Below, piece by piece: positions 1,313 through 58,071 of a stretch of DNA of 64,000 nucleotides (positions within the stretch are counted from its first letter, which is position 1; each line of letters begins with the position of its first letter). The position numbers were made by a program, and so were the translations under genes. The notes under the pieces are model-generated. The model was not told the DNA's origin, searched no databases, and saw only the letters and a list, made by a program, of their open reading frames with translations. Origin of the DNA: Candidatus Cloacimonadales bacterium (GTDB lineage: Bacteria > Cloacimonadota > Cloacimonadia > Cloacimonadales > JAIOQZ01); NCBI GenBank assembly GCA_963662655.2, contig CAXXTU010000002.1, positions 1,568,001 through 1,632,000 of the forward strand. Direction: 5' to 3'.

Positions 1313-1459
1313 GGCGGGAGCAGATACGTTCGATCCCCGCCTGTGCAGGGTGTTCCACAGCTATTTTCGGCTTTGTCGTAGTCCAAACGAAATCATGTTA
1401 GTGGAATTTAGCTGTGGTATATCCCTGTGCAGGCGGGGATCGGGCGAAGATGCCACGCC
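1313..1459 (+). repeat. dispersed covarying hairpin element, copy 1
   Basis: CAGATACGTTCGATC-cccgcctgtgcag-GGTGTTCCAC...GTGGTATATCC-ctgtgcaggcggg-GATCGGGCGAAGATGC. Confidence 0.9.
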
Positions 1460-1528
1460 GGTCGGACGAGAAGCAACATACTCGATTCTGCACTCGAATG
1501 AGCACATCGAAATCGATAAAGGAAACCC

Positions 1529-1759
1529 ATGAAGCCGCGAGATATTGTTGACGTCGAAAAAAAGCCAGACACCTGCCCGGCATGCGGACAAACGCTGGCT
1601 GAAATTCATTATGGCACCCCACAAATGAATGCACAACTCATTCAGGGGCTTTCAACAGGTTCAATTAAGCTTGGTGGTTGCTGCACGACCGGCAACGACC
1701 CCCAATTCTACTGCGCGAAATGCGGGAAATACTACCGGGTGCCTAAACCCACTCCATAA
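1529..1759 (+). CDS. small Cys-rich (zinc ribbon-like) hypothetical protein
   Basis: CPACG...YG.P...LGGCC...CAKCG; AAGGA RBS upstream. Confidence 0.7.
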   Translation: MKPRDIVDVEKKPDTCPACGQTLAEIHYGTPQMNAQLIQGLSTGSIKLGGCCTTGNDPQFYCAKCGKYYRVPKPTP

Positions 1760-1990
1760 GGATTGAAAAAGCGCTATCTACGCTCCTGCTGCGCCATGAA
1801 GAAAACGGACATCACCTGTTCCACGATATTCTTGTAAATTATACCCGTCACAACCGTAGCGACGAGCATTTACACACCCGTGAACTCAGGCGTTCGGAGT
1901 TTATCGCCGCTTTGATTCATAACGAAAGACATTCAGCATTACATAAGAAGTTAAATCTGAAATGATGTGTAATGGGATAACCTTGTGAGC

Positions 1991-2218
1991 CTATTTCCTG
2001 GATAACTTTTCGGCGATTACCTCAATCCTCTTGCTCTCGAAAGGATAGAGGTCGATCGGGACATGATTTGCGCCAAACCTCATAGCGATTCGATAGCGTG
2101 CGCATTTCGCGTATTCCGCTTTGCAATACACCTCTTTCATGGACGCTTCCGTAGATGCTTTTTGTGGCATTTCCCCATTGAAAAACGGGCACATTTCAAG
2201 CTTCGGACAATCGCTCAT
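1991..2218 (-). CDS. small Cys-rich hypothetical protein
   Basis: MSDCPKLEMCPFF...YC...CARY...VPIDLYP; AAGGGG RBS before this Met. Confidence 0.6.
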   Translation of the reverse strand: MSDCPKLEMCPFFNGEMPQKASTEASMKEVYCKAEYAKCARYRIAMRFGANHVPIDLYPFESKRIEVIAEKLSRK

Positions 2219-2280
2219 CACTTCCCCTTTATTCTCAATGATAACCACCAGACAGGATAAGACAACTTGATTTATTTATT

Positions 2281-2853
2281 TTATTCGTCACATGGCTTTT
2301 CTTGCTCACTGTCCATAATGCACGAAATAAAGAAATGGTACAGACGCTGTTTATCTTCTCTGCGCTCCTTAAATCGATCGATTGCCTGATCGATCATATC
2401 GTTCAACTCGATGAATTCCTCGCGTGCTAAAAACAGTTCGCTCGACGAATACCGCTTCGCTCCACCCTCTTTTCGATTACTCAGCGCGATGAACTTCTGT
2501 TTGCTCTCCTCGAAAAGCTGCTCGGCTCCGGATGCGAAATGAAGATTGACCTTCATAACCGTCCCCGGGTCCAGTTCCTTGCACGAAAGCTTGAAAATCA
2601 TCGCCGTCGGCTCGTAGTATTTTGCAATGATTCCGTGAATCTCTTCCGTCTTCACAAGGTGCAGTATTCCGATATCTTCCAGCTTCTTCACATGGAAATG
2701 AACATTCGCCGGTTTTACGCCAAGCTTCTCCGATATCTGCTTAACGGTCATGGCTTGTTTGCTGTTACGCAGCACATTGAGCACTTCCTGGCGCTTCTCG
2801 TCCACCAGTATCTTTATATGACTCGGGTCTGTTATTTCTCTGACTGTTTGCAT
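2281..2853 (-). CDS. ArsR-like winged HTH transcriptional regulator
   Basis: RQEVLNVL...MTVKQISEKLG...VHFHVKKLEDIG...EIHGIIAKYY; divergent from the S41 peptidase gene; GAGGAG RBS. Confidence 0.8.
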   Translation of the reverse strand: MQTVREITDPSHIKILVDEKRQEVLNVLRNSKQAMTVKQISEKLGVKPANVHFHVKKLEDIGILHLVKTEEIHGIIAKYYEPTAMIFKLSCKELDPGTVMKVNLHFASGAEQLFEESKQKFIALSNRKEGGAKRYSSSELFLAREEFIELNDMIDQAIDRFKERREDKQRLYHFFISCIMDSEQEKPCDE

Positions 2854-2975
2854 ATCCAATTCTCCTCGGATGCCATACTTAACGAGCGAGCATTTTTGTA
2901 CAATAAAAAAAATGTTTGACATTTGAAACGTTCAGCTATAAACTAACGTTAGATATATATTTAATGGAGGCTTCT

Positions 2976-4304
2976 ATGAAATACTTTGTTACGCTTTCTT
3001 TTATCCTTGCCATTTGTCTGATCGCAGCTCAAGATACTGACCCACCTGAGCTTACTGCTCAGTACAAGCAAACATTGATTGATTCATTGGCTGATGCCTT
3101 CAATCGAATTTATATCTTTCCTGATAAAGGTATCGCAATTTCGAAAACCCTTCAGGATGATCTCTCTTCAGGCAAATTCAACAACATGAAGGACCCAATC
3201 GAGGTCGCGGAAAAAATCACGCAGTGTGTCCTTCAGGCATGTCCGGACAAACATCTCGCCGTGTTCTACGCTCCTGGAATGGTCCAGCAAATCCGTATGG
3301 AAGAGAGCCAGTCGGAAGAACAGCAAATCGCGGCACATAATCGGATGCTGGAAATGGAGCGTCAGGAGAACTTCGGATTCAAGAAAATCGAAATACTTGA
3401 AGGCAACATCGGCTACTTACGTTTCGATTCATTCTCCATGCTCCCCGAGGCTTACGCTACAGCTTCAGCCGCCATGAATTTCCTGTCCAATACAGATGCC
3501 ATTATCATCGATCTACGCCACAATGGCGGTGGTTCCGCCGAAATGATTCAGTTCATCTCCAGCTATTTGTTCCCGGAGAATGAAAACACGGTACACCTCA
3601 ATACATTCCACCATCGCGAAACGGACACGACCTCACAAACATGGACGCTCCCCCATGTTCCCGGAAAACGTAATCCGAAAGCCAACGTGTACATTCTAAC
3701 GAGCGATTATACCTTCTCAGCCGCCGAAGAATTCACCTACAACCTCATGAACCTCGATCGCGCGACAATCGTTGGAGAAACAACCGGCGGAGGCGCGCAC
3801 CCGGTCAAATTCAAAGCTATCGACAACTGGTTTATTGCAAAAATACCCAATGGCCGGTCGATTAATCCGATCAGCAAGACGAACTGGGAAGGAACCGGGA
3901 TTGAACCGCACATTCAAACCGAGGCCGATTCCGCACTGGACGTTGCCTATCGGAAAGCGATCGAAAAACTACTGGTGCAGGCTGAGCCCTTTGCAAGAAT
4001 TAGATATGAATGGGCTTTGGATGGTTTGCTTCTCAAGGATAAAAATTACAAGCTCACACGAAAGCAACTCAAAGCCTTTGCCGGGGAATACGGGCCCCGC
4101 ATTGTTCGCTATCGCGACGGCAATCTCTTTTACCAGAGAAACGAAATCGAGTACCTCATGGTTCCGTATAAAGAAGACTGTTTCGCGCTCGAAGGCCTGG
4201 ACAACTTCCGCATTCGCTTCGAACGCGGCAGCAATGGAGAAATAACCTCCCTGAACGGCCTATATCACGGTGGAAAACGAGATTCATCCCCAAGAACAAA
4301 ATAA
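2976..4304 (+). CDS. S41 family peptidase (IRBP/tricorn-like), secreted
   Basis: Signal peptide; GNIGYLRF, IIDLRHNGGG, TFSAAEEF, IVGETTGGGA, WEGTGIEP motifs; GGAGG RBS. Confidence 0.9.
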   Translation: MKYFVTLSFILAICLIAAQDTDPPELTAQYKQTLIDSLADAFNRIYIFPDKGIAISKTLQDDLSSGKFNNMKDPIEVAEKITQCVLQACPDKHLAVFYAPGMVQQIRMEESQSEEQQIAAHNRMLEMERQENFGFKKIEILEGNIGYLRFDSFSMLPEAYATASAAMNFLSNTDAIIIDLRHNGGGSAEMIQFISSYLFPENENTVHLNTFHHRETDTTSQTWTLPHVPGKRNPKANVYILTSDYTFSAAEEFTYNLMNLDRATIVGETTGGGAHPVKFKAIDNWFIAKIPNGRSINPISKTNWEGTGIEPHIQTEADSALDVAYRKAIEKLLVQAEPFARIRYEWALDGLLLKDKNYKLTRKQLKAFAGEYGPRIVRYRDGNLFYQRNEIEYLMVPYKEDCFALEGLDNFRIRFERGSNGEITSLNGLYHGGKRDSSPRTK

Positions 4305-4361
4305 TGCATGATTCTCAAAGAGAATCGAAATACCTCCTGGTCCTGGATTGTTAGCATACGC

Positions 4362-4387
4362 AAGGGCTGGTCAACGCCAGCCCTTTT
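4362..4387 (+). terminator. intrinsic terminator after S41 peptidase
   Basis: aagggctgg-N6-ccagccctttt. Confidence 0.6.
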
Positions 4388-4414
4388 CCTCACGATGTAT
4401 TTCGCAAGCCACGA

Positions 4415-4561
4415 GCTTCGAACAGATTCGCTCGATCCCCGCCTGTGCAGGGTGTTCCACAGCTATTTTCGGCTTTGACGTAGTCCAAACGATATCATGT
4501 TAGTGGATAATCGCTGTGGTATATCCCTGTGCAGGCGGGGATCGGGCGAAGATGCCGAAGC
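4415..4561 (+). repeat. dispersed covarying hairpin element, copy 2
   Basis: Outer stem gcttcg/cgaagc; core nearly identical to copy 1. Confidence 0.9.
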
Positions 4562-4618
4562 GTTCGATTACAGAATGAAACCATCTCTCTTCTCTCCTCC
4601 CCCATCCAGCTTCAGACA

Positions 4619-4649
4619 ATAAAAAAAGGCTGATCTTCACCAGCCTTTT
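4619..4649 (-). terminator. intrinsic terminator of the EF-G2...PASTA operon
   Basis: aaaaggctg/cagcctttt stem with a long A run on its left. Confidence 0.6.
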
Positions 4650-4666
4650 GAACAATAAAACGTAGG

Positions 4667-5263
4667 TCATTCCCCCACATCGTCCAGCAACTCCTCATGG
4701 AGCCGCTTGCGGGGTGAACTGTCGGGTAATTTCCCCATACTAATAAACAGCGTCACCTGCGTCCCTTTGGGAACCATGGATTCGGAAGACGGCTGCGTAA
4801 AGATAATCTTGCCGTTCTCAACATCTTCAGAGTAACGTGTCTGTATCTTCTGATTTACATCCAGTCCCATATTTCGGAGCGTCAGACGAGCCTCTTTACG
4901 GGTCATGTTCACCAGGGATGGCAAGGTCACCAGCTCCGGGCCATCACTCACGACAACCTCGATAACCCTCCCCATCTTGGTGTTGGTTCCAGCCTCGGGC
5001 TTCTGCGAAATGATTCTGTTCTTCTTGACCTCATCATTGAATTGACGCTCTGTCTCTTGAATATAAAGGTGCTGCTCCTTGCATCGCTTCCTCGCAACGT
5101 CGAAATGCAAACCGGTCACTTCCGGAACGCGAATCTCCTTGCCATGCCTGGTAATCATGTTCATGACCATGTTGGTTCCGAAAAAACCGATAAGAAACAC
5201 CACGAGAAGAAACCCGATCGCTCCTCCCGCTATTGATATGATTTGTATTATTTTGTTCTTCAT
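4667..5263 (-). CDS. PASTA domain membrane protein
   Basis: N-terminal TM helix and two PASTA repeats (VPEVTG...IISQKPEAG; LPSLVNMT...IIFTQPSS). Confidence 0.85.
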   Translation of the reverse strand: MKNKIIQIISIAGGAIGFLLVVFLIGFFGTNMVMNMITRHGKEIRVPEVTGLHFDVARKRCKEQHLYIQETERQFNDEVKKNRIISQKPEAGTNTKMGRVIEVVVSDGPELVTLPSLVNMTRKEARLTLRNMGLDVNQKIQTRYSEDVENGKIIFTQPSSESMVPKGTQVTLFISMGKLPDSSPRKRLHEELLDDVGE

Positions 5264-5296
5264 AGTTCACTAATACCCATTCGTACGATGCTCGTG

Positions 5297-6619
5297 TCAA
5301 GCTTTTCGTCGCATTAGCGCGCCAAAAGCCCCGTCCATCATATGCCGATGCGGAATCGTCTTGTAAAATCCCTCGCTCGTGTATTGACTCGCCAGCTTCT
5401 CCGAGGCGTCTACCAACTCAAAATCCGGATGCTGAGCAAGGAACTGCCTTACCTGATCCTCGTTCTCGCGCTTGTTCATTGTACATGTGCTGTACGCAAG
5501 AAAACCCTCCGGGCGAACAAATTTCGCTCCATAGTGGAGCGCGCTTTCCTGAATCTTCAGCAGTTCTTCCAGATCCTGCGCTCGCTGCCAGCGAAGCTCA
5601 GACTTCTTCTGAAGCACGCCCCAGCCAGTACACGGCACATCCAGCAGCACACGATCATAAGCAGGCGCGACCGGACCGTAGCGGAACGAGTCTTCCACAA
5701 TCGTTCGCACGTTGTTCACCTGCAAGCGCTGCAAGGCTTGCTTGATCTTCTTCACCTTGTTCGGAATACGGTCGATGGCGATGATCTCACCCTGGTTCTG
5801 CATCTTCTCGCCGATGTAAGAAGTCTTCCCACCCGGGCCGGCGAACAGGTCCAGAACCGATTCCCCGGGCTGAGGATCGAGCAGCTCCACCACCAGCGCT
5901 GCCGAGGCGTCCTGTATGGAGAAGTACCCTTCCTCGAAGGCTACATCGCTCAAGACTTCGTTGGGCTGATTGGTCGTCATCATCATGCTCGATGCTGTGC
6001 TAGGCGTAAGCTCGATATCCTTTCGTGAAAAATAGGCGATGAGCTTCTCGGCGCTTGTTTCGATCTGGTTGACACGTACATTGAGACGCGGCACATCGTT
6101 GAAGTACATGCAGAGCATCTCGGTCTCATCCTCGCCCCAGGTATCCAGCCATATCTGAATCAGCTCCGGAGGATAGGAGTACTCCAGCGCCATTCGTTGC
6201 ACCGGGTCTTCCGGATAGGTTACCTTGTTCGGGTCCCGCTGGTACGAACGCAGAACCGCGTTGATGAAATCCGCGACCCGCTGGTCGAATTTCGACTTCG
6301 CAAGATCCACGGTCTCGTTTATCGCCGCATGATCCGGGATGTTCTCGCAGTAGCGCAATTGATACAACGCCATGTAGAGGAGAATCTGCACCTTCAAATC
6401 CGTCTTGTCGAATTTTACCGCGTCCGTGTAGAACGTTGCGATATGATGCAGGTGCTCCCGCAGCTTTACCGTTCCTTTGACGATGGTGTAAAATAAATCG
6501 TGATTGCCGTCGGCGTTCTTGATTTTCTTGCCGACATTGCGAAGAAGGTTGTCAGAGAAGGCGTTGTCTTTTAAGACTTTCGTGAGTACTTTATAGGCTT
6601 CAGCTCTTTCGTTTACCAT
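5297..6619 (-). CDS. rsmB: 16S rRNA m5C967 methyltransferase RsmB/Sun (NusB-like N-domain)
   Basis: HAAINETVDLAK, FINAVLR, QDASA, DLFAGPGGKT, LLDVPCTGWG, YSTCT motifs. Confidence 0.92.
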   Translation of the reverse strand: MVNERAEAYKVLTKVLKDNAFSDNLLRNVGKKIKNADGNHDLFYTIVKGTVKLREHLHHIATFYTDAVKFDKTDLKVQILLYMALYQLRYCENIPDHAAINETVDLAKSKFDQRVADFINAVLRSYQRDPNKVTYPEDPVQRMALEYSYPPELIQIWLDTWGEDETEMLCMYFNDVPRLNVRVNQIETSAEKLIAYFSRKDIELTPSTASSMMMTTNQPNEVLSDVAFEEGYFSIQDASAALVVELLDPQPGESVLDLFAGPGGKTSYIGEKMQNQGEIIAIDRIPNKVKKIKQALQRLQVNNVRTIVEDSFRYGPVAPAYDRVLLDVPCTGWGVLQKKSELRWQRAQDLEELLKIQESALHYGAKFVRPEGFLAYSTCTMNKRENEDQVRQFLAQHPDFELVDASEKLASQYTSEGFYKTIPHRHMMDGAFGALMRRKA

Positions 6620-6651
6620 ATCTTGATCCTATCGTCAGGATAGAACATCGT

Positions 6652-7245
6652 TCATTTCTTGTAAAGGAATCGTATAACATCTTTGATAAGAATTTCGGCG
6701 TCGCTGTATTTCGCCGGCTCGTAGACCTTCTTGATGGCTTTGGAAATCTCCGGTTTTTTGTAGCCGAGCGCTTCCAGCGCAGATTCGGCTTCCTGCACAA
6801 TCTCCGTTCGCTGCACAACCGAATCGCCCTCCGGAAGCTTGATTTGCTGCACTCTGTCTTTCAAGTCTATGATCACACGTTCGGCAGTTTTCTTGCCCAG
6901 GCCGGGCACGGTCGCGATGAGCCGTGCATCGCCCGATTCGATCGCCTCGACCCAGTTCCTCACCGACATCCCCGAAAGCGCTGCCAGCGCACTCTTGGGG
7001 CCGATCTTCGATACGCTTAGCAGCAGGCGGAACATGTCTCGCTCCTCGGGGGTGTGAAAGCCGTACAGCCTGATTCCATCCTCGGACATGCCGAAATGGA
7101 TCAAAAGCTTCGCCTTCTCCCCCGCCTTCGGGAGCTTCTCATAGGTGCTGAGCGGGATGCTTACCTCGTACCCCACACCCATGCAGTCAAGAATCACATA
7201 TGAAAATTCCTTTTCGGCAAGCAAGCCTCTCAGGTATGCAAACAT
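6652..7245 (-). CDS. ruvA: Holliday junction branch migration protein RuvA
   Basis: MFAYLRG...GVGYEV...LYGF...VSKIGPKSAL...VPGLGKKTAERVIIDLK...ALEALGY. Confidence 0.95.
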   Translation of the reverse strand: MFAYLRGLLAEKEFSYVILDCMGVGYEVSIPLSTYEKLPKAGEKAKLLIHFGMSEDGIRLYGFHTPEERDMFRLLLSVSKIGPKSALAALSGMSVRNWVEAIESGDARLIATVPGLGKKTAERVIIDLKDRVQQIKLPEGDSVVQRTEIVQEAESALEALGYKKPEISKAIKKVYEPAKYSDAEILIKDVIRFLYKK

Positions 7246-7263
7246 ATCTTTCCTTTTCCGAGT

Positions 7264-7752
7264 CTATCGATTCAGCAGTCCCGATTTCAGCCGATTGAAG
7301 TGGCAAAGCGCAATGGCAAGCGCGTCGGCGGCGTCCTCGCAGGATGGAGGCGTGATCTGCGGCAGGAGTTGCCCGATCATGTAGCGCACCTGCTGCTTGG
7401 TCGCGTTGCCGTTACCGACGACGGATTTCTTCACCTCTCGGGGGGAATATTCGTAAACCGGTATATTCTGCTGAGCGAGCGTCATCAGAATGGTTCCGCG
7501 AGCGTGTCCGAGCGTAAAAGCGCTCTTGAGATTCTTTCCGTAGAAGATGGTTTCAACAGCCGCATGGTCGGGATGATACTCGTCGAGAATTTCTCTAAGT
7601 TTTACGTGAATCGATAGGAGTCTTTGCGGTAGGCTTTGTTTTGTGTCGATTTTGATTGCGCCGCTTCCGGCAGCCAGGACTTTCCTGCCTTCGATCTCCA
7701 GCAAGCCGTATCCGAAGATACGGCTGCCGGGATCAATACCAAGGATGATCAC
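7264..7752 (-). CDS. ruvC: crossover junction endodeoxyribonuclease RuvC
   Basis: [44 protein letters not shown]. Confidence 0.96.
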
Positions 7753-8498
7753 TGTCCTGCGATCCTCTCCATTACTTCGTCTGAGACTTCATAGTTCGCG
7801 TAGATTTTCTGGACGTCGTCGAGGTCCTCCATCTTTTCGATGAGTTTGAACACGCGTTCGGCAAAATCGTCGGCGTTGATGGTGTTTTTCGGAATTCGTG
7901 TCAACTCGGCCTTCTCGATGGTGAAATCTTTCTCGAGCGCTATGTTGACAGCGTTGAAGTCGTTCAGCGATGTGAGAACTTCGAAATACTCGTCATCGTC
8001 GAGAAGAACGTCTTCCGCACCAGCTTCCAGGGCTGCCATCATGAATTCGTCCTCGTCCTGACCGCCTTTGGGGATCAGGATGGAACCTTTCTGTTCGAAA
8101 TTCCATGATACCGCGCCGTTTTCGGCAAGGTTACCGCCGTACTTGGTGAAGGTGTGGCGAACTTCGGCAACCGTGCGGTTCTTGTTGTCCGTCATCACTT
8201 CGACCAGAACAGCCACGCCGTTGGGGCCGTAGCCTTCATACATGAATTCTTCGTAGCTTACGCCTTCAATTTCGCCGGTACCGCGCTTGATTGCCTTTTC
8301 GATGTTATCTTTGGGCATGTTGGCGTTACGCGCGTTCGAGACGGCTGTGCGAAGACGCGGATTGGTATCGATATCTCCACCGCCGTTTTTTGCAGCGATG
8401 ATGATTTCTTTAGCCAAACGGGTGAACAGCTTGCCGCGTTTTGCGTCGGCTGCACCCTTTTTATGCTTTATCGAGCTCCATTTATTATGTCCTGACAT
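7749..8498 (-). CDS. yebC: YebC/PmpR family protein
   Basis: [15 protein letters not shown]...YEGYGPNGV...TDNKNRT. Confidence 0.96.
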
Positions 8499-8525
8499 TT
8501 TGCCTCCGTTAGGGCTGGGCCCGGT

Positions 8526-10580
8526 TTAGTCCTGTTCTTTGTACTCGGCGATGACTTTTTCGGCTACTTCGTACGGCACGCGTTCGTAGTGGGAGAATTC
8601 CTGCTCGAAGCGTCCGCGACCCTGCGTGAGGGATTTCAGTGCGGGGTAGTAGCTGAACAATTCGGCCAGCGGAAGCTGAGCGTTAAGAATCTGCTTCTTG
8701 CCGGACTGCTCCATACCGAGAATCTTGCCGCGACGGGTCGAGATATCGCCCATAACGTCGCCCATATATTCGTTCGGGATCACGATCTTCACCGTGTGAA
8801 TCGGTTCGAGAAGGATCGGATTCGCCTTCGCGAAACAGGCCTTCAGACACTGGGATGCAGCGATCTTGAATGCCATTTCGGAAGAGTCCACATCGTGGTA
8901 GGAACCGTCGTAGACTTCAACGCTGATATCAACGACTTTGTAGCCGGCGATGACGCCTCTGTCCATGGTTTCCACAACGCCCTTTTCGATAGCGGGGACG
9001 AACTTGCTGGGGATACGCCCGCCAACAATCGAATCGATAAATTCGTAGTTCTTGCCGCGCTCCGACGGTTTAAGGCGGAAGTAGACTTCGCCGTACTGAC
9101 CGCGTCCACCGGATTGTTTTTTGTGGCGGTATCTCTCGTCGGCGTTACCGGTGATGGTCTCGCGATAAGGGATGCGTGGGGTTTCGAGAACCGCTTCGAC
9201 CTTGAAGCGCTTCATGAGGTTCTTCACGACCAGGTTGATCTGCTGTTCGCCGGCGCCCGAGAGAATCTGCTCGTGGGTTTCGGTGTTCAGCTCGAGACGC
9301 ACGGTCGGGTCTTCGTCGAGAAGCCGGGTGAGCGCTGCGCCGATCTTGTCTTCGTCGCTCTGGTTGGCTGCACGGATGCGCTGCCAGTAGATCGGAGAAG
9401 GAAGCTTCGGGCTCGGGAAGCAATACTTGGCGTTGGTAGGAACGATGGAGTTCATACCGCGAGCGAGTTTAAGCTTGACCAGTCCGCCGATTTCACCGGC
9501 GCGAAGCTCGGTTGTGTCGGTGCGGTTCTTGCCCTGCACGTAGGAAACGGCGCCGATCTTGTCTTTACCGTCTTTTTCGGGGATCAGAACGTCCATGCCG
9601 CTGCGAAGCGTTCCCGAGAGAACTTTCACATACGCGATGTCGCCGATGTTCGGGTCTGCGAACGATTTGAAAATGTAAGCGTAGAGTTCGCCATCCGCGG
9701 AAGCCTTGATCTTCTTGATCTCGCCGTTGAAATCGGCAGGGACTTCAGGGCGATCAGCCGGGGACGGAAGGTAATCGATGATCGCGTCGAGAAGCGTCTC
9801 GACACCGACATCCTTGGTCGCGGAGGTTGCGAAAACCGGAACAACGATACCTTTGTTGATACCGACTTTTATACCGGACGCGAGTTCTTCGTCGGTCAGT
9901 TCGCCTTCCTCGAAGTACTTTTCGAGAAGCGTGTCGTCGGCTTCGGCAACGGCTTCCATGAGTTTCATGCGTGATTCTTCAACGAAATCGGCCATGTCGT
10001 CCGGAATCGCGGTTACCTTGCCGTCGACAAAGGCTTTGCCCTTGACGATGTCGACAACGCCATTGAATGTATTTTCCTTACCGATCGGGATGATCAGCGG
10101 AGCTGGGATGATCTCCGAGTTTTCCTGAATCATGTCGATTGCTTTCTGGAAATCGGCGTGCTCGTTGTCCAGGCGGTTCACGATGATCGCTTTTGCGATC
10201 GCGGGATTCTTCGCCATCAGTTCGAGCGGGAGCTCGAGACTCACGTCGAATCCGGCAGCGCCGTTCACAACCATGAGGGCTGTTTCAGCAGCAGTGAATC
10301 CGGCGATCTGCTCGCCGTAGAAATCCGGGTAGGAAGGGGCGTCGATCATGTTGACACGGGCGTTCTTCCAATCGAGATGGCCGATCGAAAGACTGATCGA
10401 CATTTTCTTCTCGATCTCTTCCGGATCGAAGTCCATTACTGTATTGCCTTCGTCGATCTTGCCGATTCTCGAAGTCGCTTTCGCTTTGTTGAGCATGTGT
10501 TCGACCAGAGTGGTCTTGCCTGATCCGCTACCGCCTACCAAAAGGATGTTTCGGATGTTCTTCATTTCATAGTTTTTCAT
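8526..10580 (-). CDS. elongation factor G-like protein (EF-G2/FusA2 paralog)
   Basis: EF-G domain IV/V motifs KKQSGGRGQYG, YDGSYHDVDSSEMAFKIA, LLEPI, MGDVMGD; non-canonical G-domain motifs. Confidence 0.9.
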   Translation of the reverse strand: MKNYEMKNIRNILLVGGSGSGKTTLVEHMLNKAKATSRIGKIDEGNTVMDFDPEEIEKKMSISLSIGHLDWKNARVNMIDAPSYPDFYGEQIAGFTAAETALMVVNGAAGFDVSLELPLELMAKNPAIAKAIIVNRLDNEHADFQKAIDMIQENSEIIPAPLIIPIGKENTFNGVVDIVKGKAFVDGKVTAIPDDMADFVEESRMKLMEAVAEADDTLLEKYFEEGELTDEELASGIKVGINKGIVVPVFATSATKDVGVETLLDAIIDYLPSPADRPEVPADFNGEIKKIKASADGELYAYIFKSFADPNIGDIAYVKVLSGTLRSGMDVLIPEKDGKDKIGAVSYVQGKNRTDTTELRAGEIGGLVKLKLARGMNSIVPTNAKYCFPSPKLPSPIYWQRIRAANQSDEDKIGAALTRLLDEDPTVRLELNTETHEQILSGAGEQQINLVVKNLMKRFKVEAVLETPRIPYRETITGNADERYRHKKQSGGRGQYGEVYFRLKPSERGKNYEFIDSIVGGRIPSKFVPAIEKGVVETMDRGVIAGYKVVDISVEVYDGSYHDVDSSEMAFKIAASQCLKACFAKANPILLEPIHTVKIVIPNEYMGDVMGDISTRRGKILGMEQSGKKQILNAQLPLAELFSYYPALKSLTQGRGRFEQEFSHYERVPYEVAEKVIAEYKEQD

Positions 10581-10855
10581 AAGTTCCTCGTTGTTTCCTT
10601 TCTATTTCTTTTCAATTCATTCATGATTCATCCAGCGATCGTCCACTACGAGAACCTCCCGGCTCTCCTTCAGGACATTACCACATTAAATCGGAACGCG
10701 TTTAAAATCAATTGGTTCCACGCACATCCCCATCGAGACAAAAGCCTTTCGCATGGTAATGATGCAAGTTTTCAATTTTTTGAAGACGGATAATCTTGTC
10801 AAACTATTCCGTTAGAAGAATTAGTGTGACTCAAAACTGAACATCCGATGATGAC

Positions 10856-11062: not shown

Positions 11063-11111
11063 TGTGCTCCCTTCTTACTCTTTATTCGTTGCTTACGAAA
11101 ACATCAACATA

Positions 11112-11244
11112 CTCGGGTACAGATTCGTTCGATCCCCATTCTCGTCGTGGTGTTTCACACCCTTACCACCGCACTCTCCCCTTCCATTCGTAGGGGTGTG
11201 GTATATCCACTACGAGAATGGGGATCGGGCGAAGATGCCCCGAG
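11112..11244 (+). repeat. dispersed covarying hairpin element, copy 3
   Basis: Outer ctcggg/cccgag; stem gatccccattctcgt/acgagaatggggatc; GGTGTTTCAC/GTGGTATATCC core; unrelated apical loop. Confidence 0.9.
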
Positions 11245-11277
11245 CGCCGACCTCGCAGCGACATTCTCTCGATATCT

Positions 11278-23634: not shown

Positions 23635-23649
23635 CGGCCACCCGGCGCT

Positions 23650-23831
23650 CCACACGCAGATTCGTTCGATCGTGAGCGGAATCGTGGTGTTTCACACCCG
23701 ATTTTCGGCTTTCGTGCAACGAATACGAGATCTTCGAACGAAAGTCAATCGCGGAGCGAAAATACGAGAGTGGATGATCGGGTGTGGTATATCCACGATG
23801 GAGCGAGGGATCGGGCGAAGGTGCGTAGTGG
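23650..23831 (+). repeat. dispersed covarying hairpin element, copy 4
   Basis: CAGATTCGTTCGATC..atcgtGGTGTTTCACacccgatt...gatcgggtGTGGTATATCCacgat..GATCGGGCGAAGGTGC; middle stem partly unpaired. Confidence 0.85.
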
Positions 23832-23899
23832 CAACCACCCCGCAGCAATCAACTCCCTTCCCCCATCCTGCTAATCGTGCGAATCGTGTGAATCGTGAT

Positions 23900-39154: not shown

Positions 39155-39157
39155 CAG

Positions 39158-40060: not shown

Positions 40061-40155
40061 GATAACTCCACAAAAAAAATTTCATGACAACAAAACCAAT
40101 CTACACCCAAGCAAGCAAGTTATTTTCTCGTGAATCAAATCCGGGTAATCTACGA

Positions 40156-40289
40156 GGCGCGAGCGGATTTGTTCGATCTCCCTTTTCGCCGTGGTGTTTC
40201 ACGACGGAGTAGTTCTTCATATCATTTTTTGTTTACGGAGTCGTGGTATATCCACGGCGAAAAGGGAGATCGGGCAAAGATGCCGCGCC
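40156..40289 (+). repeat. dispersed covarying hairpin element, copy 5
   Basis: Outer ggcgcg/cgcgcc; TTTGTTC/GGGCAAA compensatory variant; perfect 20-bp gatctcccttttcgccgtgg/ccacggcgaaaagggagatc. Confidence 0.9.
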
Positions 40290-40445
40290 GGTCGGACACA
40301 GCAAGTAACATAGCTCGCTCTTCTCCCCGTCCTGCTAATCTCGCTAATCCCGTAAATTCTGATTCAAACAATCTCTCCTCGAAACAGAGTAGCGCCTATT
40401 ACGTTTACCCGTTATACTATATTGATATTCACAGGAATCAATAGA

Positions 40446-47214: not shown

Positions 47215-47454
47215 ATTTACTCCTGCAGAACGTTTTCCTGAAAGCAGAAACCCGGGTCATGCCCGGTAATACGTTGTATTATAATGTGTTATGCCTGATT
47301 GTGAGATGTGACACATCTCGCGGCACTATAAAGTGTCAGTTATAAGACCCACTTTGATTTGTCAAAGGATTCTTGTTTTTTCAGAGTTTTCTTTGGGATT
47401 GTGCTGTGTCCCGTCCTGAAATAGGTTGACCGTTGGGTCGAAGGAGGCTCAGGT

Positions 47455-48680: not shown

Positions 48681-48726
48681 GAAGCAATCGAAATGAAATC
48701 AAACACGAAAAAGCTGGTCAACTATT

Positions 48727-49938
48727 TTAGGACGGGACATCCTGGAACGTCCTGAAAAACCGCTCGACCACCTTGGCGCGCGCGTTGTAAGCCTTGGCAA
48801 ACGCCACGCCGATGCCGAGTCGCGGGAAGATACCCTCCAACTCCTTGCTGAGGTCGTGCTTCTCCCAATGCTTGTTGAACAGTTTGCTCCGGAACGCTTT
48901 GCCATTATCGAGATACACGTACTTCGGCTTGCCGCCCCAGTGCATGATCGAGTTGCGTAACGCGAGCAACACATGCTGAGAATCTTCCGAGACCGCCAAC
49001 GATGCTCCCACCGGGTAACGGGAAGCCCAGTCGAAGAACATGATCATCGTCATGCGCCTGGGCTTTCCGGTAGCCGGATCGATGATGTCGAAAGCAAGTT
49101 TATGCCCGTCGGCAACCCAGACGTCGCCGACCTCGAGTTCGTCACTGCGAAGGATGCTGAGGATGCCGGTCTCCTTCAGCGACTTCTTGCCGTTACGAAG
49201 TAAGTTCCACTCAGGCTTGTGGCTGTCGCGCCACTCCTCACACCAGCGGCGTAGCGTCCTTTCGCTCGATGGTGACTCCAGCTTCTGCAAGGTTTCCATC
49301 TGCTTCAGCTTGCGGATGGCCGACCCGATGGATATGCGATTGGGGTTGAGCAGCAGGTGCAGCAGGAAGTTCTGTTCGGTCTCTGTCGCCTTACGTGTGG
49401 CTTCCGCGACCGTGTACTTGCGGATGAGCGACCTGGCGTCTCGTCCCGCTTTGACGTAGTTCCGCACCCAACGACGCAATGTCCGCTCGCCGCGATGTCC
49501 CTCGACCACGTACAGCTCCGGCATGAAGCGTCTGTCGTTGTAAGCTTCGACGATTGTCTTCCACGCATCCGTCTTGGAGTCAGCCCGACTCAGGACTTCA
49601 AGAATGGCGTCGCAGAGCTGCGCACGCAGATGCGCCTGCTCCTGAAAATGCATGGGTTCGGTGTGCCTGGGGCGCAGGTCGGGTATCGTCTCGTCCCGTA
49701 GAGCTGGTACCGAAATCGAGACTGACTCTTCTTGTTCGTCCTCTTCTGAATCGTGTGCTGTTTCTGGCTCTGTCGGCGTCTCAGTCCTCTCATCTGGGAC
49801 AGCATACAGCTTGCGACGCCCTCCCTGCGGCAAGGTCTCGTAGCGTGACTCCCATCCCTTCTCCCGCGCTATCTTGACTGCTGTCGGACGTGATACGTTC
49901 AACATGTCCTGCAATTCCGAGCATGTCATCCAATTCAT
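48727..49938 (-). pseudogene. Mu-like (MuA) DDE transposase, C-terminally truncated by IS3
   Basis: N-terminal Mu DNA-binding-like domain (AREKGW..GGRRKLY), VWVADGH, YLDNGKAF, AKVVERFF; the last codons and stop lie inside the IS3 IRR. Confidence 0.85.
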
Positions 49939-52243: not shown

Positions 52244-52340
52244 ACAGTTCCCTTGTGTTTCTATCAATATAAGCAATTTCATGGGGTTTGAAAAGCATTT
52301 ATGCAAACTGTTTTAAAATTTAAGGCAACTCATCAAAACC

Positions 52341-52559
52341 TCACGGGAGCAGATTCGTTTGATTTCCCGCGAAATTGTGGTGTTTCACACCCAATTTTCG
52401 GCTTTGGCGTAGTCGATTTTAGGTTTCGCGTAGCGATAACCTGGAATCCCAAAGACGAAATCATGAACGATGTGATTTCGTTCCTCGAAATCATGTTAGT
52501 GGATAATCGGGTGTGGTATATCCACATTTTGCGGGAAATCGGGCGAAGATGCCCCGTGA
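52341..52559 (+). repeat. dispersed covarying hairpin element, copy 6 (longest)
   Basis: Outer tcacggg/cccgtga; GATT/AATC compensatory variant of GATC/GATC; nested hairpins in the loop. Confidence 0.9.
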
Positions 52560-52613
52560 TGCAATCGGGAATCAGATCATCCCTGTCAGCATAAGCAAGC
52601 CGCTAACCACCCA

Positions 52614-55554: not shown

Positions 55555-55567
55555 ACGACCTCTCTTT

Positions 55568-56251
55568 CTATCCCCAATCGATTTCGATAGCGTATGGGTT
55601 GGGATCCTTTATTCCGGCGCGCTTGAAAGCCTGGATGCGTAAATGGCAGCTATCGCAGGTACCACAGGCAACATCGTTGTCGCGGTAGCAGCTCCAGCTC
55701 AGCTCGAACGGCGCACCCAGCTCCCTGCCGAGTCTGATAATCTCCGCCTTGTTCATGTGGATCACCGGCGTATGAATCTCGATGTGCGTATCGTCCCTCG
55801 TACCGGCGTCAATCGTCAGGCCGAAGCGCTTGTAAAACACGTCCCTGCAATCGGGATATCCGCTGGAGTCTTCCTCCACCGCTCCGATGTAGATCCGCTG
55901 CGCGCCGATCACTTCCGCCCAGCTAACCGCGATGCAGATCAGATGCGCGTTGCGGAACGGCACGTACGTATCGGGAATGCCGGATTCACCCTCCGAGTAA
56001 TCCTTCACGTCCATGGAGAGATCGGTCAGCGCGGAGCCCCCAATCTCGGCAAGATAGGAGATATCAACCGATCGACAACCCGCTGGCTTGAAGTGCGTGC
56101 AGAGTTTCTCGAAAAGCTCCGCTTCCTTCTTCTGCGTACGCTGCCCGTAGTTTGCGTGAAGGAAATGGACTTCGTCCGATTCCCTTCCGGCAATCGCAGC
56201 CGTTACCAGGCTGTCCATTCCACCGCTTACAAGTATGATTGATTTGATCAT
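55568..56251 (-). CDS. queC: 7-cyano-7-deazaguanine synthase QueC
   Basis: SGGMDS, YGQR, TYVPFRN, SGYPDCR, SWSCY, CGTCDSC.LR. Confidence 0.95.
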   Translation of the reverse strand: MIKSIILVSGGMDSLVTAAIAGRESDEVHFLHANYGQRTQKKEAELFEKLCTHFKPAGCRSVDISYLAEIGGSALTDLSMDVKDYSEGESGIPDTYVPFRNAHLICIAVSWAEVIGAQRIYIGAVEEDSSGYPDCRDVFYKRFGLTIDAGTRDDTHIEIHTPVIHMNKAEIIRLGRELGAPFELSWSCYRDNDVACGTCDSCHLRIQAFKRAGIKDPNPYAIEIDWG

Positions 56252-56334
56252 CGCGTTCCTCTTCTTATCATCTGATAATTCTTTATATTCTTCGTACGGT
56301 ACGTGCGTCAAGTAAAGAGTAATCTCATAAAATG

Positions 56335-56364
56335 AAAAGCCGGCAGATTTCTCTACCGGCTTTT
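56335..56364. terminator. bidirectional intrinsic terminator
   Basis: aaaagccgg/ccggctttt. Confidence 0.6.
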
Positions 56365-56381
56365 CTATTTCGGGTTGATGG

Positions 56382-57737
56382 CTATTTCAGCATCAGCATT
56401 TTGCGGGTGAACGTTGATTCGCCCACGGTAAGCTGATAGAAATAGATTCCGCTTGGTTGATCTTTTGGTTCCCAGCTAACCCTGTGTATCTGTCCACCGC
56501 TTCTCTGCTGATGGTCGATCAGGGTGTTGATCAGCTGACCCTTCATGTTGTAAACCTTGAGGGTGATTTCGCTCGATTCCGCGATGTAGAAGCTGATCTC
56601 CGTGCTTGGGTTGAAAGGATTCGGATGGTTCTGGTTGAGCTGAGCGAATACGTCCGTGCTCGGAACACTCTCGCCACCCTCTTCGCCATCCTCGAGAATC
56701 GTGATCTGAACTGGACCGTGGAATCTTGACTGTCCGCTCATTTCCTTTGCTTCCAGCCAGTAGTAGTAGGTCATTTCCGACTGGATATCTCCGTCGGTGA
56801 ACTGGTATACCTGTTCGGCTGAGATATTGTTCGCTTCCACGAATCCCATGTCGTATGCGTCAGCGATGTCGTCGTTTGCACTGCGATAGACCTGATAGCC
56901 CATCATATCGCTTTCGGACTGGGTTACCCATTCCAGAAGAACGTAGTTCTCGGAGGTGAGTACTGCTTCAAATGAAGAGAATTCGACAGGAAGTGAGCCG
57001 TCGTCGTCGTTGAAATAAACAATGTCCAGCACCATTGTCGGGATGGTGTCGTCAATTTCAAGCTGACGGTTGGCAATTGCACCTTCCCAGGTTGAGCCGT
57101 TAACGAATTTGTATTCGATATACGGAGTTGAACCGCCGGAGAAGAGGACATCGCCTGCGTAAATATTACCACCCTGGTCGGTCAAGGTGTTCGCACCAAC
57201 TGCCCAACCATTGAATGAGCCGGCAACAGAGATTGCGCCTTCGACACCGGCAACGCTCATATCGACTCGGAACGTGACCGTTACATCCTGTCCAAGAGGA
57301 TCACCGTAGAAGAATTCACCGGGAGCTGCTGCCGTGAAGGGCCCATGACCGTTCTGGTCTGTTCCGTATGAATAGGTTTCGTCGGTAGTATCATAGCCTT
57401 CACAGTAAAACTCTGCAATATCGCCAGCTATATAAGTACCACCGGGAATCGTAGCGGTATATTCGTCGTTGCTTCCGACATCTCCATTATAGGTCATTGC
57501 CACGGAATTGTATACCGTTTCACCGGAAAGCCGGTAATAGAATGTCGCCGTTATACCAGCGCCCTGGCCACCGCTGTTAGTAACACCATCTTTCCAAATC
57601 TGGTAATAAACATTGAGGTCATTACCAGGTACATGGAAGGTTTCCTCATTCGGCCAGATGTTTCCGCTCCAGCCTATCGATGCGTTCAAAACAAGCACAA
57701 CTGAAACAAGCATGAAAAGGATTGCAAAACGTTTCAT
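56382..57737 (-). CDS. secreted protein with CBM20/starch-binding-like domain and FlgD/T9SS-like CTD
   Basis: Signal peptide; VTFRVDMS..VAGSFNGW..EYKFVNG..WE; LPVEFSSF..W.TQSE; QNHPNPFNPST..KMLMLK. Confidence 0.7.
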   Translation of the reverse strand: MKRFAILFMLVSVVLVLNASIGWSGNIWPNEETFHVPGNDLNVYYQIWKDGVTNSGGQGAGITATFYYRLSGETVYNSVAMTYNGDVGSNDEYTATIPGGTYIAGDIAEFYCEGYDTTDETYSYGTDQNGHGPFTAAAPGEFFYGDPLGQDVTVTFRVDMSVAGVEGAISVAGSFNGWAVGANTLTDQGGNIYAGDVLFSGGSTPYIEYKFVNGSTWEGAIANRQLEIDDTIPTMVLDIVYFNDDDGSLPVEFSSFEAVLTSENYVLLEWVTQSESDMMGYQVYRSANDDIADAYDMGFVEANNISAEQVYQFTDGDIQSEMTYYYWLEAKEMSGQSRFHGPVQITILEDGEEGGESVPSTDVFAQLNQNHPNPFNPSTEISFYIAESSEITLKVYNMKGQLINTLIDHQQRSGGQIHRVSWEPKDQPSGIYFYQLTVGESTFTRKMLMLK

Positions 57738-57890
57738 GTTGAACCTCCTCTATTTTTTTTCTTTGCACTCTTTCACAATACTAAGACAACCAAATGAATT
57801 TCTGCTTGTCAATATTTTTTTGTTTCAAACACATAATTTATTACAAAATGATTCCATACTTCTTCCGCTCGCAAATGATAAAAAAAGCAA

Positions 57891-58071
57891 CATCGTGAGC
57901 AGGTTCGTTCGATCGCCGCCTGTGCAGGGTGTTCCACAGCCGATTTTCGGCTTTCGTGCAACGAAAACCTACTCATGAACACTGTGATTTCGTTCTCCGA
58001 AATCATGTTACTGGATAATCGGGTGTGGTATATCCCTGTGCAGGCGGCGATCGGGCGAAGATGCCACGATG
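57891..58071 (+). repeat. dispersed covarying hairpin element, copy 7
   Basis: Outer catcgtg/cacgatg; gatcGccgcc/ggcggCgatc compensatory change relative to copies 1 and 2. Confidence 0.9.

Follow-up and report, generated by a model that had tools for sequence, protein, structure and literature searches.

Intergenic palindromic repeats confined to a single genus are an already known kind of element. ERIC/IRU, Correia and bcr1 are imperfect palindromes of 100-150 bp that lie between genes, are restricted to a genus or family and reach tens to hundreds of copies; for several members of this class, we know of no transposase. Other described elements are hairpins or have a strand preference. Compensatory changes are reported for REPIN hairpins in PMC3116915, and the process acting on BIMEs is described as possible on both strands in PMC3333891. 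In chromosomal integrons, the foldable strand of attC sites lies on the template of the leading strand in 25 of 30 cases (PMC5371416), and for IS200/IS605 elements PMC3971601 and PMC6006769 place the active strand on the template of the lagging strand and describe a chromosome-wide, replication-tied orientation bias.

Here, we characterize a dispersed, intergenic imperfect palindrome of ~140 nt from a Cloacimonadales genome (G000). The window, the whole stretch of 64,000 nucleotides that was analysed, holds seven copies, every one on the + strand. A covariance model (R1), built from 45 copies of which two come from the window, finds exactly these seven on the + strand (92.8-133.7 bits, E 2e-25 to 1e-37), while their opposite strand scores merely 30-41 bits. 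The motif GTGGTATATCC occurs exactly seven times, always within the copies, and GATCGGGCGAAGATGC (at most one mismatch) and CAGATTCGTTCGATC (at most two mismatches) are located at the same seven copies and absent elsewhere on either strand. Model and motif matches therefore agree with the original prediction on the seven hairpins, and the single compensatory changes it had read from the sequence are present as well: copy 5 has TTTG/CAAA, copy 6 has GATT/AATC, and in copy 7 a C-G pair has become G-C. Its notion of a seven-member family holds for the window and falls for the genome, where 129 distinct matches were found in a genome-wide model run that missed four further copies with long apical inserts, copy 6 among them. 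This amounts to ~133 copies in this 3.8 Mb genome, dispersed ~29 kb apart. The hairpin itself was correctly recognized, but its length was underestimated: the conserved span runs from 11 nt 5' of CAGATT to 9 nt 3' of GATGC (cGAGgCGtGAG...CACGcCGGt), with sharp ends, as information content is zero outside -11 and +9, and the newly delimited ends contribute a bulged A as well as an outer stem of 6 bp that covaries. A comparison with Rfam matched no family, in keeping with the claim that the repeat is not a described one.

The copies differ in the length of their modular, expandable apical domain. In the following, the neighbouring genes of copies 1, 2, 4 and 7 are named by Pfam, gene contexts come from crude longest-ORF gene calls, and motif positions are listed in the order CAGATTCGTTCGATC, GTGGTATATCC, GATCGGGCGAAGATGC. 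Copy 1 (1307..1467; 104.4 bits, E 6.8e-29; motifs at 1321-1335, 1414-1424 and 1438-1453) is a medium form with a core of 133 nt, flanked on one side by the end of a subtilase/T9SS-tail gene, whose stop is at 1284, and on the other by a terminator-like site on the minus strand (1595-1569). Copy 2 (4409..4569; 99.4 bits, E 2.1e-27; 4423-4437, 4516-4526 and 4540-4555), also medium, sits between convergent genes for an S41 peptidase and a PASTA protein, which end at 4304 and 4667, respectively, and its minus-strand neighbour has a terminator-like hairpin of its own (4649-4624). Two copies are short: copy 3 (11106..11252; 116.3 bits, E 1.8e-32; 11120-11134, 11198-11208 and 11223-11238) lies between, and antisense to, two minus-strand genes for EF-G and a T9SS-tail protein, and copy 5 (40150..40297; 133.7 bits, E 1.1e-37; 40164-40178, 40243-40253 and 40268-40283) occupies a spacer whose neighbours diverge, a phosphonate-binding protein gene (-) on one side and a PAP2 gene (+) on the other. 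The long form is represented by copy 4 (23647..23838; 92.8 bits, E 2.1e-25; 23657-23671, 23784-23794 and 23809-23824), which has a core of 168 nt with an apical insert and lies between convergent genes for an ion-channel/pentapeptide protein and TauE, and by copy 7 (57886..58078; 98.7 bits, E 3.4e-27; 57900-57914, 58025-58035 and 58049-58064), between, and antisense to, two minus-strand genes for a T9SS-tail protein and a 2-hydroxyacid dehydrogenase. Copy 6 (52336..52566; 97.1 bits, E 1e-26; 52350-52364, 52513-52523 and 52537-52552), the longest of the window with a core of 203 nt and an extended apical module, likewise lies between, and antisense to, two minus-strand genes.

The repeat folds into a single long hairpin with fixed non-Watson-Crick features: one A is bulged, G.A and U.G each occur in tandem, and there is an internal loop of 4x5. 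Compensatory change is seen in 29 of the 39 predicted pairs, and 94.5% of cells are paired, compared to 79.8% after shuffling and 33-49% when partners are slid. The covariation score of 0.419 (0.147 in shuffles) was reached by none of 500 shuffles. Between nearest-neighbour copies (mean identity 77%), 141 compensated double changes stand against 78 single breaks, and 62 single changes that keep pairing against 17 double breaks; change per site is 0.16 in stems and 0.28 at unpaired sites, and G.U outnumbers A.C among the variable pairs by 70 to 15. The predicted selection on a folded single strand is thus borne out by pairing, covariation, double changes and wobble pairs alike. That the fold presents two fixed sites at a fixed distance, as the original prediction proposed, is a hypothesis rather than a finding. 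Selection for folding acts on one strand only, and this strand is singled out by constant differences between the arms, namely the bulged A, G.A and U.G. With RNA parameters, the sense strand is stabler than the antisense strand in 128 of 129 copies (mean -14.1 kcal/mol); with DNA parameters, this holds for 121 of 129 (-4.1 kcal/mol). The RNA fold has a mean of -77 kcal/mol. The asymmetry is unaffected by which strand the neighbouring genes would transcribe (p 0.86).

What, then, sets the orientation of the copies? The foldable strand is placed near-absolutely on the lagging-strand sequence. In the sister species G001, 31 of 32 copies obey this rule; in G000, where dnaA (C2:2766490) and dif (796583) coincide with the turns of the GC skew, it holds for 92 of 124 copies (p 6.5e-8), and the majority persists in every gene context (convergent 35:17, divergent 16:1, antisense tandem 28:7, sense tandem 13:7). 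Minority-orientation copies show no greater decay (p 0.44). The lagging-strand sequence is the leading-strand template, and the foldable strand almost always points against the fork. Orientation does not depend on gene direction. For 96 of 129 copies, the closest end of a gene is its 3' end, at a median distance of 13-14 nt, and relative to that gene 44 copies are sense and 52 antisense; in tandem spacers the numbers are 20 and 38. Convergent spacers harbour 52 of 124 copies, compared to 389 of 2258 spacers overall, and 17 of 129 copies overlap a neighbour's stop codon. The element ends carry no direct repeats of at least 3 nt, that is, no target-site duplication. Outside the hairpin there is no conserved flank in which a promoter or terminator could lie, nor is the hairpin followed by a T-run; inside copies 1-3, no promoter-like or terminator-like sites were found.

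The family is present in all four species of one genus of uncultured Cloacimonadales (G000 and 3/3 others). The order's other genera, represented by 37 genomes, lack it, and so do all 148 genomes that cover 52 other genera of the phylum. Copy number varies several-fold between species (129 in G000, 32 in G001), and so does site occupancy: a conserved syntenic stretch of 20 kb carries three copies in G000, none in G001 and G002, and one in G003, which is located elsewhere and on the opposite strand. The G001 spacer orthologous to that of copy 3 is ~145 nt shorter and lacks the copy, and further sites occupied in G000 are empty in G001. There is no sign of recent movement, and the copies are old: no two share more than 93.5% identity (median between nearest neighbours 82%), unlike the ISL3 and IS3 copies of G000, which are >99% identical, and no excised or empty-site variants were seen in contigs of the two runs holding the window. 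Some degenerate copies, truncated copies and orphan halves also occur. G002 and G003 share one copy at the same site, flanked by spermine-synthase-like and Memo/AMMECR1 genes; there, differences affect 6 of 78 stem sites (two compensated pairs plus a G.U and a break) and 18 of 61 unpaired sites. Compensation of this sort at one fixed site agrees with a host function no less than with a selfish element.

Taken together, we consider the repeat a likely non-autonomous mobile DNA element of REPIN/attC type, whose folded single-stranded DNA would be the substrate of a putative trans-acting enzyme, with a probability of about 0.5. Of the two options originally offered, a single-stranded DNA substrate and a multicopy non-coding RNA gene, the evidence leans to the former and away from the latter: orientation is strongly tied to replication and independent of genes, and the hairpin lacks a conserved flank. 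The copies would have spread, now or formerly, via a single-stranded DNA form, and some protein may read the bulged A, the 4x5 loop and the tandem G.A and U.G. Coupling of insertion to the fork could produce the replication bias. Alternatively, copies might be excised and lost when the foldable strand is on the lagging-strand template, so that those on the leading-strand template persist. This second route matches reports for attC sites of chromosomal integrons. Several points weaken the mobile reading: the enzyme searches yielded no cognate gene, the candidate enzymes do not fit, neither signs of recent movement nor excised variants were seen, the polarity is opposite to that of IS200/IS605 and the compensation at a fixed site suits a host function equally well. 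As the original prediction had it for the window, no cognate enzyme is in view: Y1-HUH, IS110 and TnpB genes were not found in the G000 genome, and a Y2 search of it gave no matches but carries little weight, as its control was silent too. The best two tyrosine recombinases fall well short of integron-integrase cut-offs and were rejected as ordinary XerC/XerD types. A reverse transcriptase was rejected as well: the sole RVT_1 match in G000 is a Drt3b-like, defence-type fragment preceded by an in-frame stop, and the other three element-bearing species did not show this gene.

A structured RNA, either a multicopy small RNA gene or a cis-acting 3'-UTR hairpin of the kind suggested for REP and ERIC elements, which would halt RNA polymerase or exonucleases, is possible but unlikely. 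The very stable RNA fold, the tandem U.G and G.A typical of RNA helices and a strand asymmetry far larger with RNA than with DNA parameters speak for it; so do the closeness to and overlap with stop codons, by which read-through transcription of most copies is probable. However, orientation to the nearest gene is random, antisense copies prevail in tandem spacers, and the asymmetry ignores which strand the neighbours transcribe. There is no flank that might bear a promoter, no T-run and, in copies 1-3, no internal promoter-like or terminator-like site, and Rfam gives no match. The 31 of 32 copies against the fork are not predicted by an RNA and would mean head-on transcription.

Quite improbable is a host-kept DNA signal for the fork or for chromosome organization, read on the template of the leading strand and no longer mobile; re-priming or a site for a nucleoid or replication protein would be examples. 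The polarity in both genomes, the good preservation of old copies, the compensatory change at the shared site and the undiminished minority copies are consistent with such a signal. In addition, ATATCCACG, two positions off the DnaA box TTATCCACA, occurs in 74 of 129 copies, and both its variant letters are also found in boxes beside dnaA. Yet the CCAC of this DnaA-like motif covaries with its partner rather than being fixed, the family is limited to one genus whereas replication machinery is universal, and both occupied sites and copy number (32 versus 129) differ among sister species.

We give very little credence to a retro-mobile element, in which reverse transcription of sense RNA would take place at the fork, with the nascent leading strand as primer. 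With such priming, the sense strand would come to lie on the leading-strand template, which would match the observed polarity, and the RNA fold is strongly favoured, but the only RVT_1 match in G000 is the Drt3b-like gene with its upstream in-frame stop, not found in the other three species, and the copies have neither a poly-A nor any other tail at the 3' end. That the copies are neutral relics of an extinct MITE, palindromic by descent only, is disfavoured and exceedingly improbable: absent recent copies, transposase searches that yielded no cognate gene and decayed copies and orphan halves would fit, but the excess of pairing-keeping over pairing-breaking changes, the slower stems and the lack of target-site duplication do not.

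Finally, we would like to place the repeat, read as a mobile single-stranded DNA substrate, among the known systems. It resembles ERIC/IRU, Correia and bcr1, by description, as a long, intergenic, lineage-restricted palindrome. Its sequence is unrelated as far as Rfam tells, and descriptions otherwise set it apart: it lacks terminal inverted repeats with target duplication and features a replication-strand bias and a modular, expandable apical domain. With IS200/IS605 it shares the absence of target duplication, a replication-tied orientation bias and, as proposed here, folded single-stranded DNA. However, TnpA and TnpB genes were not found in G000, the entire element is one hairpin instead of two different subterminal ones, and the polarity is reversed, with the foldable strand on the leading-strand template, against the fork. 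Like REP, BIME and REPIN sequences, it is extragenic, high-copy and lineage-specific, lies mostly at gene 3' ends, has arms that are imperfect inverted copies forming a hairpin and occurs in adjacent copies as inverted tail-to-tail doublets (6/6); as in REPINs, conserved blocks are parted by variable paired segments with compensatory changes (PMC3116915). Unlike REPs with a RAYT (TnpA-REP), it has no Y1-HUH gene found in its genome, and it is one 140-nt hairpin without a GT[AG]G tag 5' of a short hairpin of 20-40 nt. Its arms differ fixedly and single out one strand, and its strong replication-strand bias is not reported in the REP papers considered. From attC sites it is set apart by copies ~29 kb apart rather than arrayed behind cassettes, by the absence of a GTTRRRY box from its 3' end and by the lack of an integron integrase, the best two tyrosine recombinases fitting XerC/XerD. 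Nevertheless, it resembles attC in that structure is conserved over sequence, one strand folds, unpaired bases are fixed and the apical part varies, and, as in chromosomal integrons, the foldable strand is found on the leading-strand template.

The original prediction had described seven intergenic hairpins in the window (1313-1459, 4415-4561, 11112-11244, 23650-23831, 40156-40289, 52341-52559 and 57891-58071), and exact motif, near-motif and covariance-model matches return these, all on the forward strand, and no others. GTGGTATATCC occurs exactly seven times in the window, once per copy; with both strands searched, the 16-mer GATCGGGCGAAGATGC (at most one mismatch) and the 15-mer CAGATTCGTTCGATC (at most two mismatches) fall at the same seven places only. 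R1, a covariance model of the family trained on 45 short-form copies from the source genome (G000), two of them from the window, likewise matches the window at exactly the seven, with 92.8-133.7 bits on the forward strand, while their opposite strands score 30-41 bits only. Chance cannot be the source of this agreement between motif and model at seven places, and the shared layout and the single compensated changes that had been listed are visible in the alignment of the seven. The limits first assigned to the element fall short of its full extent: conserved ends lie further out, cGAGgCGtGAG 5' of CAGATT and CACGcCGGt 3' of GATGC, beyond which the information content is zero, so that the commonest form measures about 140 nt. 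Over the whole of G000 (3.81 Mb, 51% G+C, two contigs), R1 returns 132 rows, three of which are opposite-strand echoes, leaving 129 distinct copies scattered over both contigs; four further copies with long apical inserts, among them window copy 6, lie outside this set and bring the family to about 133 copies, or 0.5% of the genome. The commonest class has a core of 109-117 nt (68 of 108 motif-defined copies), and a second size class one of 164-168 nt (19 of 108).

RNAalifold on the 45-copy alignment gives a single long hairpin of 39 pairs. It rises from a variable outer stem of 6 bp at the foot through a bulged A, three pairs (GCA/UGC) and a tandem G.A / A.G to a conserved helix, UUCGUUCGAUC/GAUCGGGCGAA, whose two adjacent U.G pairs are present in 42 and 43 of the 45 copies. 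Above this helix come a stem of variable sequence (about 11-14 bp), a 4x5 internal loop (UGUU / UAUAU) with G-C closing pairs, and a further stem leading to a tip whose length and sequence vary freely. This apical part is built of modules: it is missing from some copies (cores of 66-86 nt), and long forms carry an extra hairpin module there. In the copy at C2:1736706-1737085 (C2 being the contig that holds the window, at C2:1568001-1632000), the apical loop contains about 3.5 tandem units of a module of about 71 nt, and window copies 4, 6 and 7 owe their 'long form' to the same module, whole or partial; the hairpin's apical domain thus behaves as an expandable cassette. Two copies, at C2:2292348-2292485 and C2:2599689-2599830, have symmetrical arms, the usual left motif being replaced by the reverse complement of the right-arm motif.

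That selection acts on a folded strand had been proposed from the window alone, and compensatory changes, slid-partner controls and a nearest-neighbour analysis now bear this out. Compensatory changes are found in 29 of the 39 pairs of the 45-copy alignment; paired cells amount to 94.5% of 1741, against 79.8% in column shuffles, and the covariation score of 0.419 (0.147 in shuffles) is reached by none of 500 shuffles, in an alignment drawn from one genome and with a shuffle control that takes no account of kinship. When partners are slid by one to three columns, paired cells fall to 33-49%. Since the copies are related, each was also compared with its nearest neighbour (37 copy pairs, mean identity 77%). 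Compensated double changes number 141, single changes that keep pairing 62, single changes that break it 78 and double changes that break it 17; differences per site among nearest neighbours are 0.16 in stems and 0.28 at unpaired positions. The slid-partner controls and the neighbour comparison are stronger arguments for a selected fold than the shuffles. The constraint also distinguishes the two strands. With the two invariant U.G pairs excluded, the alignment holds 70 G.U and 15 A.C cells, and folding is more stable for the sense strand (the foldable strand, as written) than for its complement in 128 of 129 copies under RNA parameters (means of -77.2 and -63.0 kcal/mol) and in 121 of 129 under DNA parameters (-39.8 and -35.8). 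This asymmetry is equal whether transcription from the neighbouring genes would read the sense strand (-14.3) or the antisense strand (-14.9; p 0.86), which makes it a property of the element and not of a host messenger. We regard it as firmly established that one defined strand is under selection to fold.

The orientation of the copies follows replication. On C2, the turning points of the GC skew are near 0.8 and 2.7 Mb: dnaA lies at the skew minimum (C2:2766490) with clusters of TTATCCACA boxes on both sides, and the dif site of G000, ATAATATATATTATGTAAACT (C2:796583-796603), a perfect match to the dif-like consensus, lies at the maximum, giving replichores of about 1.97 and 1.71 Mb. In 92 of 124 C2 copies the foldable strand lies on the lagging-strand sequence, the template of the leading strand (p 6.5e-8). 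This bias is present in each of four spacer types, with lagging-to-leading counts of 35:17 in convergent, 16:1 in divergent, 28:7 in tandem antisense and 13:7 in tandem sense spacers. Gene strand cannot explain it, because only 53% of G000 genes are co-oriented with replication by crude gene calls; relative to the nearest gene, 44 copies lie sense and 52 antisense. In the closed genome of G001, another species of the genus (dnaA at 1,657,872; negative skew between about 3.65 Mb and 1.65 Mb, passing through 0), the foldable strand has this same placement in 31 of 32 copies, a two-sided binomial probability of about 1.5e-8 by our own arithmetic. Decay of the minority-orientation copies was considered and set aside, their scores being no lower (p 0.44). 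That replication sets the orientation of the hairpins is firmly established, and the bias is among the strongest known to us for a non-coding repeat.

The copies favour the ends of genes. By longest-ORF gene calls, which make the counts approximate, 96 of 129 copies have a 3' end as their nearest gene end, with the stop codon a median of 13-14 nt away; 52 of 124 copies occupy convergent spacers, against 389 of 2258 among all spacers, and in 17 of 129 the stop codon of the facing gene is inside the element. Six adjacent doublets, all tail-to-tail, occur in G000. Their members are only 52-63% identical, which makes them separate arrivals, and local palindromic duplication was rejected as their source. 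Around the window copies the genes are ordinary (subtilase and other type-IX-secreted proteins, S41 peptidase, EF-G, TauE, a phosphonate-binding protein and others), and within window copies 1-3 no promoter-like or terminator-like sites were found. Several other features of these surroundings may be recorded. Window 1003-1065, in a gene ending at 1284, shares 80-100% identity over 29-62 nt with many places in the sister genomes and codes for a portion of a C-terminal sorting domain of type IX secretion (FlgD_ig/CHU_C), a domain also present in several gene neighbours of hairpin copies. A tRNA gene at 29945-30017 is the sole Rfam match in the window (68.2 bits). A UmuC-like Y-family polymerase gene (IMS, IMS_C, DUF4113; C2:834834-836517), preceded by a small ORF, is flanked by a full and a truncated copy, inverted to each other. 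A conserved leader upstream of Thi4/ThiC/ThiD, a putative TPP riboswitch by its resemblance to the consensus, lies at C2:780760-780980 in G000 and at 1640-1760 of a G001 stretch (L064); in both genomes a hairpin copy sits just upstream of the leader's promoter region, in opposite orientations and from different subfamilies.

Among the genomes searched, the family was found in one genus only. The motif pair is found in records titled Candidatus Cloacimonadales bacterium, and a scan of other genomes, as had been proposed, recovers the family with R1 in all three other species of the genus (32 copies in G001, at least 38 in G002 and at least 60 in G003), in none of the 37 genomes that represent the order's other genera and in none of 148 genomes (52 genera) from other genera of the phylum. 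Viral contigs gave no match to the motif pattern; metagenome contigs gave two, neither confirmed by R1, which also did not confirm a Cryomorpha record, the sole genome-collection match outside Cloacimonadales. Occupancy varies between the species. Over 20 kb of conserved synteny, three copies occur in G000, none in G001 or G002, and one in G003, in a different spacer and on the other strand; at copy 3 the G001 spacer is the shorter by about 145 nt, and the site corresponding to the G000 copy at C2:1963003 is empty there. Two sites are shared, one downstream of the thiamine operon (G000 and G003) and one between spermine-synthase-like and Memo/AMMECR1 genes (G002 and G003). At the latter, 35 of the 39 modelled pairs are identical, and of the other four two are compensated, one is now U.G and one is broken, while 18 of 61 unpaired positions differ; for this one locus, the comparison shows constraint acting on the hairpin in place.

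The copies within G000 are also diverged, with a highest pairwise identity of 93.5% and a median nearest-neighbour identity of 82%, in contrast to the 13 ISL3 and 8 IS3 copies of the same genome, which are >99% identical. It is firmly established that the hairpins are old, genus-specific, structured repeats. Against window 1-20000, contigs from three public sequencing runs stop at copies 1 and 2 and run across copy 3, with contig joints near 1335-1437 that are a product of paralogous copies; none in these runs is joined across an empty site. A look for RNA data on window 1-10000 among public runs gave no entry. A role of the copies as synteny breakpoints was rejected: five of nine element loci from the other species have flanks that lie apart in G000, and a background of 30 breaks in 57 adjacencies (20 random G001 windows) leaves no enrichment. 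Literature searches on palindromic repeats in Cloacimonadota and on intergenic repeats in acidaminovorans yielded nothing of this kind.

What, then, are these hairpins? The structural part of the original prediction is supported, and on present evidence the family is not a categorically new system. Sharp ends, no target duplication, variable occupancy and genus restriction suggest that the element is, or once was, mobile, and we consider the likely reading, at a probability of roughly 0.5, to be a single-stranded DNA hairpin element akin to REPINs and attC sites and served by a putative enzyme. Its orientation bias would arise either because insertion is coupled to the replication fork or because copies that carry the foldable strand on the lagging-strand template are lost preferentially. 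An element of this kind leaves the missing recent copies, the reading protein and the fold kept at fixed sites to be accounted for, and for this reason two rivals stay. The first is a structured RNA; replication polarity and independence from transcription argue for DNA as the relevant single strand, and we think this reading unlikely. Slightly less likely again is a host signal. A bolder and similarly doubtful proposal is a new class of replication-polarised hairpin, whose 140-nt single strand, with the fixed bulge, the G.A and U.G pairs and the loop as its signature, would be recognised by an enzyme or a partner in the replisome that belongs to none of the HUH, DDE, IS110 and integron-integrase repertoires; it might be a novel single-stranded DNA recombinase system or a host signal that could act on the leading-strand template, for example in restart or re-priming after fork uncoupling.

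The value of the family lies in an unusually rich, well-supported structural signature, a clear choice of folding strand and a strong orientation bias. Intergenic palindromic repeats are common, and to our knowledge a mode of spread is known among them for the REP-RAYT family only. The hairpins can be used to test the integron-derived idea that substrates made of folded DNA persist only in the template of the leading strand, and since the known single-stranded DNA transposases that can be checked were not found in the genomes, they make a good system in which to look for a new hairpin-reading enzyme. In practical terms, short-read assemblies of these Cloacimonadales genomes come apart at the repeats, and R1 can flag the genus in metagenomes.

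Finally, we would like to set the family beside known systems. As had been supposed, no Rfam family matches the hairpins: for six copies searched at E values up to 10, only models of microRNA precursors and thermometer hairpins came up, scoring 15-30 bits where the cut-offs are 85-150. Several local candidates were rejected as partners. The tyrosine recombinase 41 nt from the copy at C2:1153439 is a XerD-type gene, and for one of six tyrosine recombinases to adjoin a copy is, by our estimate, about half likely by chance. The single reverse transcriptase is a Drt3b-like, defence-type gene that one query did not find in the three other species; it lies at C2:981049-982608, is nearest to antiviral Drt3b/Drt4 though far below the cut-offs, and has an in-frame TGA between its ORF pieces. 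Genes enclosed by two copies are all ordinary (thiamine genes, UmuC-like polymerase, DUF58, MscS, signal peptidase, HemN, helicase-HNH), and the likeness of the hairpin to a DnaA box is weak because part of the motif covaries. As to MITEs of DDE transposases, direct repeats of at least 3 nt around 108 copies are not above the permuted expectation at any offset, the ends of the multicopy ISL3 (13 copies) and IS3 (8 copies) are unrelated to the hairpin in a survey that covers single-copy insertion sequences in part, and no left and right hairpin halves separated by a gene were found. The ISL3-family element (DDE_Tnp_ISL3; C2:365544-366899 and 12 other places, >99% identity) duplicates an 8-bp target. 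Three of its 13 copies lie within 65 nt of a hairpin, and targeting of the hairpin was rejected: all ISL3 copies are in A/T-rich 8-bp targets, and the A-tracts beside terminators explain this nearness. The window's IS3-family element (47404-48739, rve/rve_3 in ORF 47433-48677), one of eight G000 copies with >99% identity, is unrelated to the family. Searches of G000 for the IS110 family and for Y2 gave no match, the Y2 control being silent as well, so that the Y2 result carries no information. A dif-like site would be expected of a Xer-dependent, IMEX-like element; among four matches to the ATAATATATATTATGTAAACT pattern (at most three mismatches) there is no hairpin copy.

In IS200/IS605 elements the active strand lies on the lagging-strand template, according to PMC3971601 and PMC6006769; the hairpin family has the opposite polarity, and neither a TnpA (Y1) nor a TnpB gene was found in G000 (no PF01797 or PF07282 match). 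REP sequences are defined, in PMC6006769, as imperfect palindromes of 20-40 nt with GT[AG]G 5' of the foot. The hairpins resemble REPs and REPINs in being extragenic and present in many copies (129+4), in inverted arms that form a hairpin, in compensatory changes and in inverted doublets. They differ in having no GT[AG]G-tagged short palindrome, the unit being about 140 nt with the ends cGAGgCGtGAG / CACgcCGGt, and in two arms that differ from each other in fixed ways. The RAYT gene that usually accompanies REPs, flanked by repeats, was not found in G000 when this was checked as proposed: none of seven candidates matches PF01797 (Y1_Tnp) in a genome that is 98.95% complete, by a search that, run as a control, recovered this gene family from 6 of 14 known genomes. 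The foot of attC carries the R'' / R' boxes RYYYAAC ... GTTRRRY. These boxes are not in the hairpin family, whose foot reads GGCGTG-A-GCAGA ... GATGC-CACGCC, and whereas attC sites stand in arrays behind cassettes, next to an integron integrase, the hairpin copies are dispersed; no integron integrase was found, the best two tyrosine recombinases reaching 111-128 bits where the integron-integrase cut-off is 265, and both fitting XerC/XerD. What the two share is conservation of structure over sequence, a single foldable strand and a variable apical part, and the likeness extends to replication: according to PMC5371416, the foldable strand of attC lies in the template of the leading strand in 25 of 30 chromosomal integrons, and that of the hairpin family is likewise on the leading-strand template.
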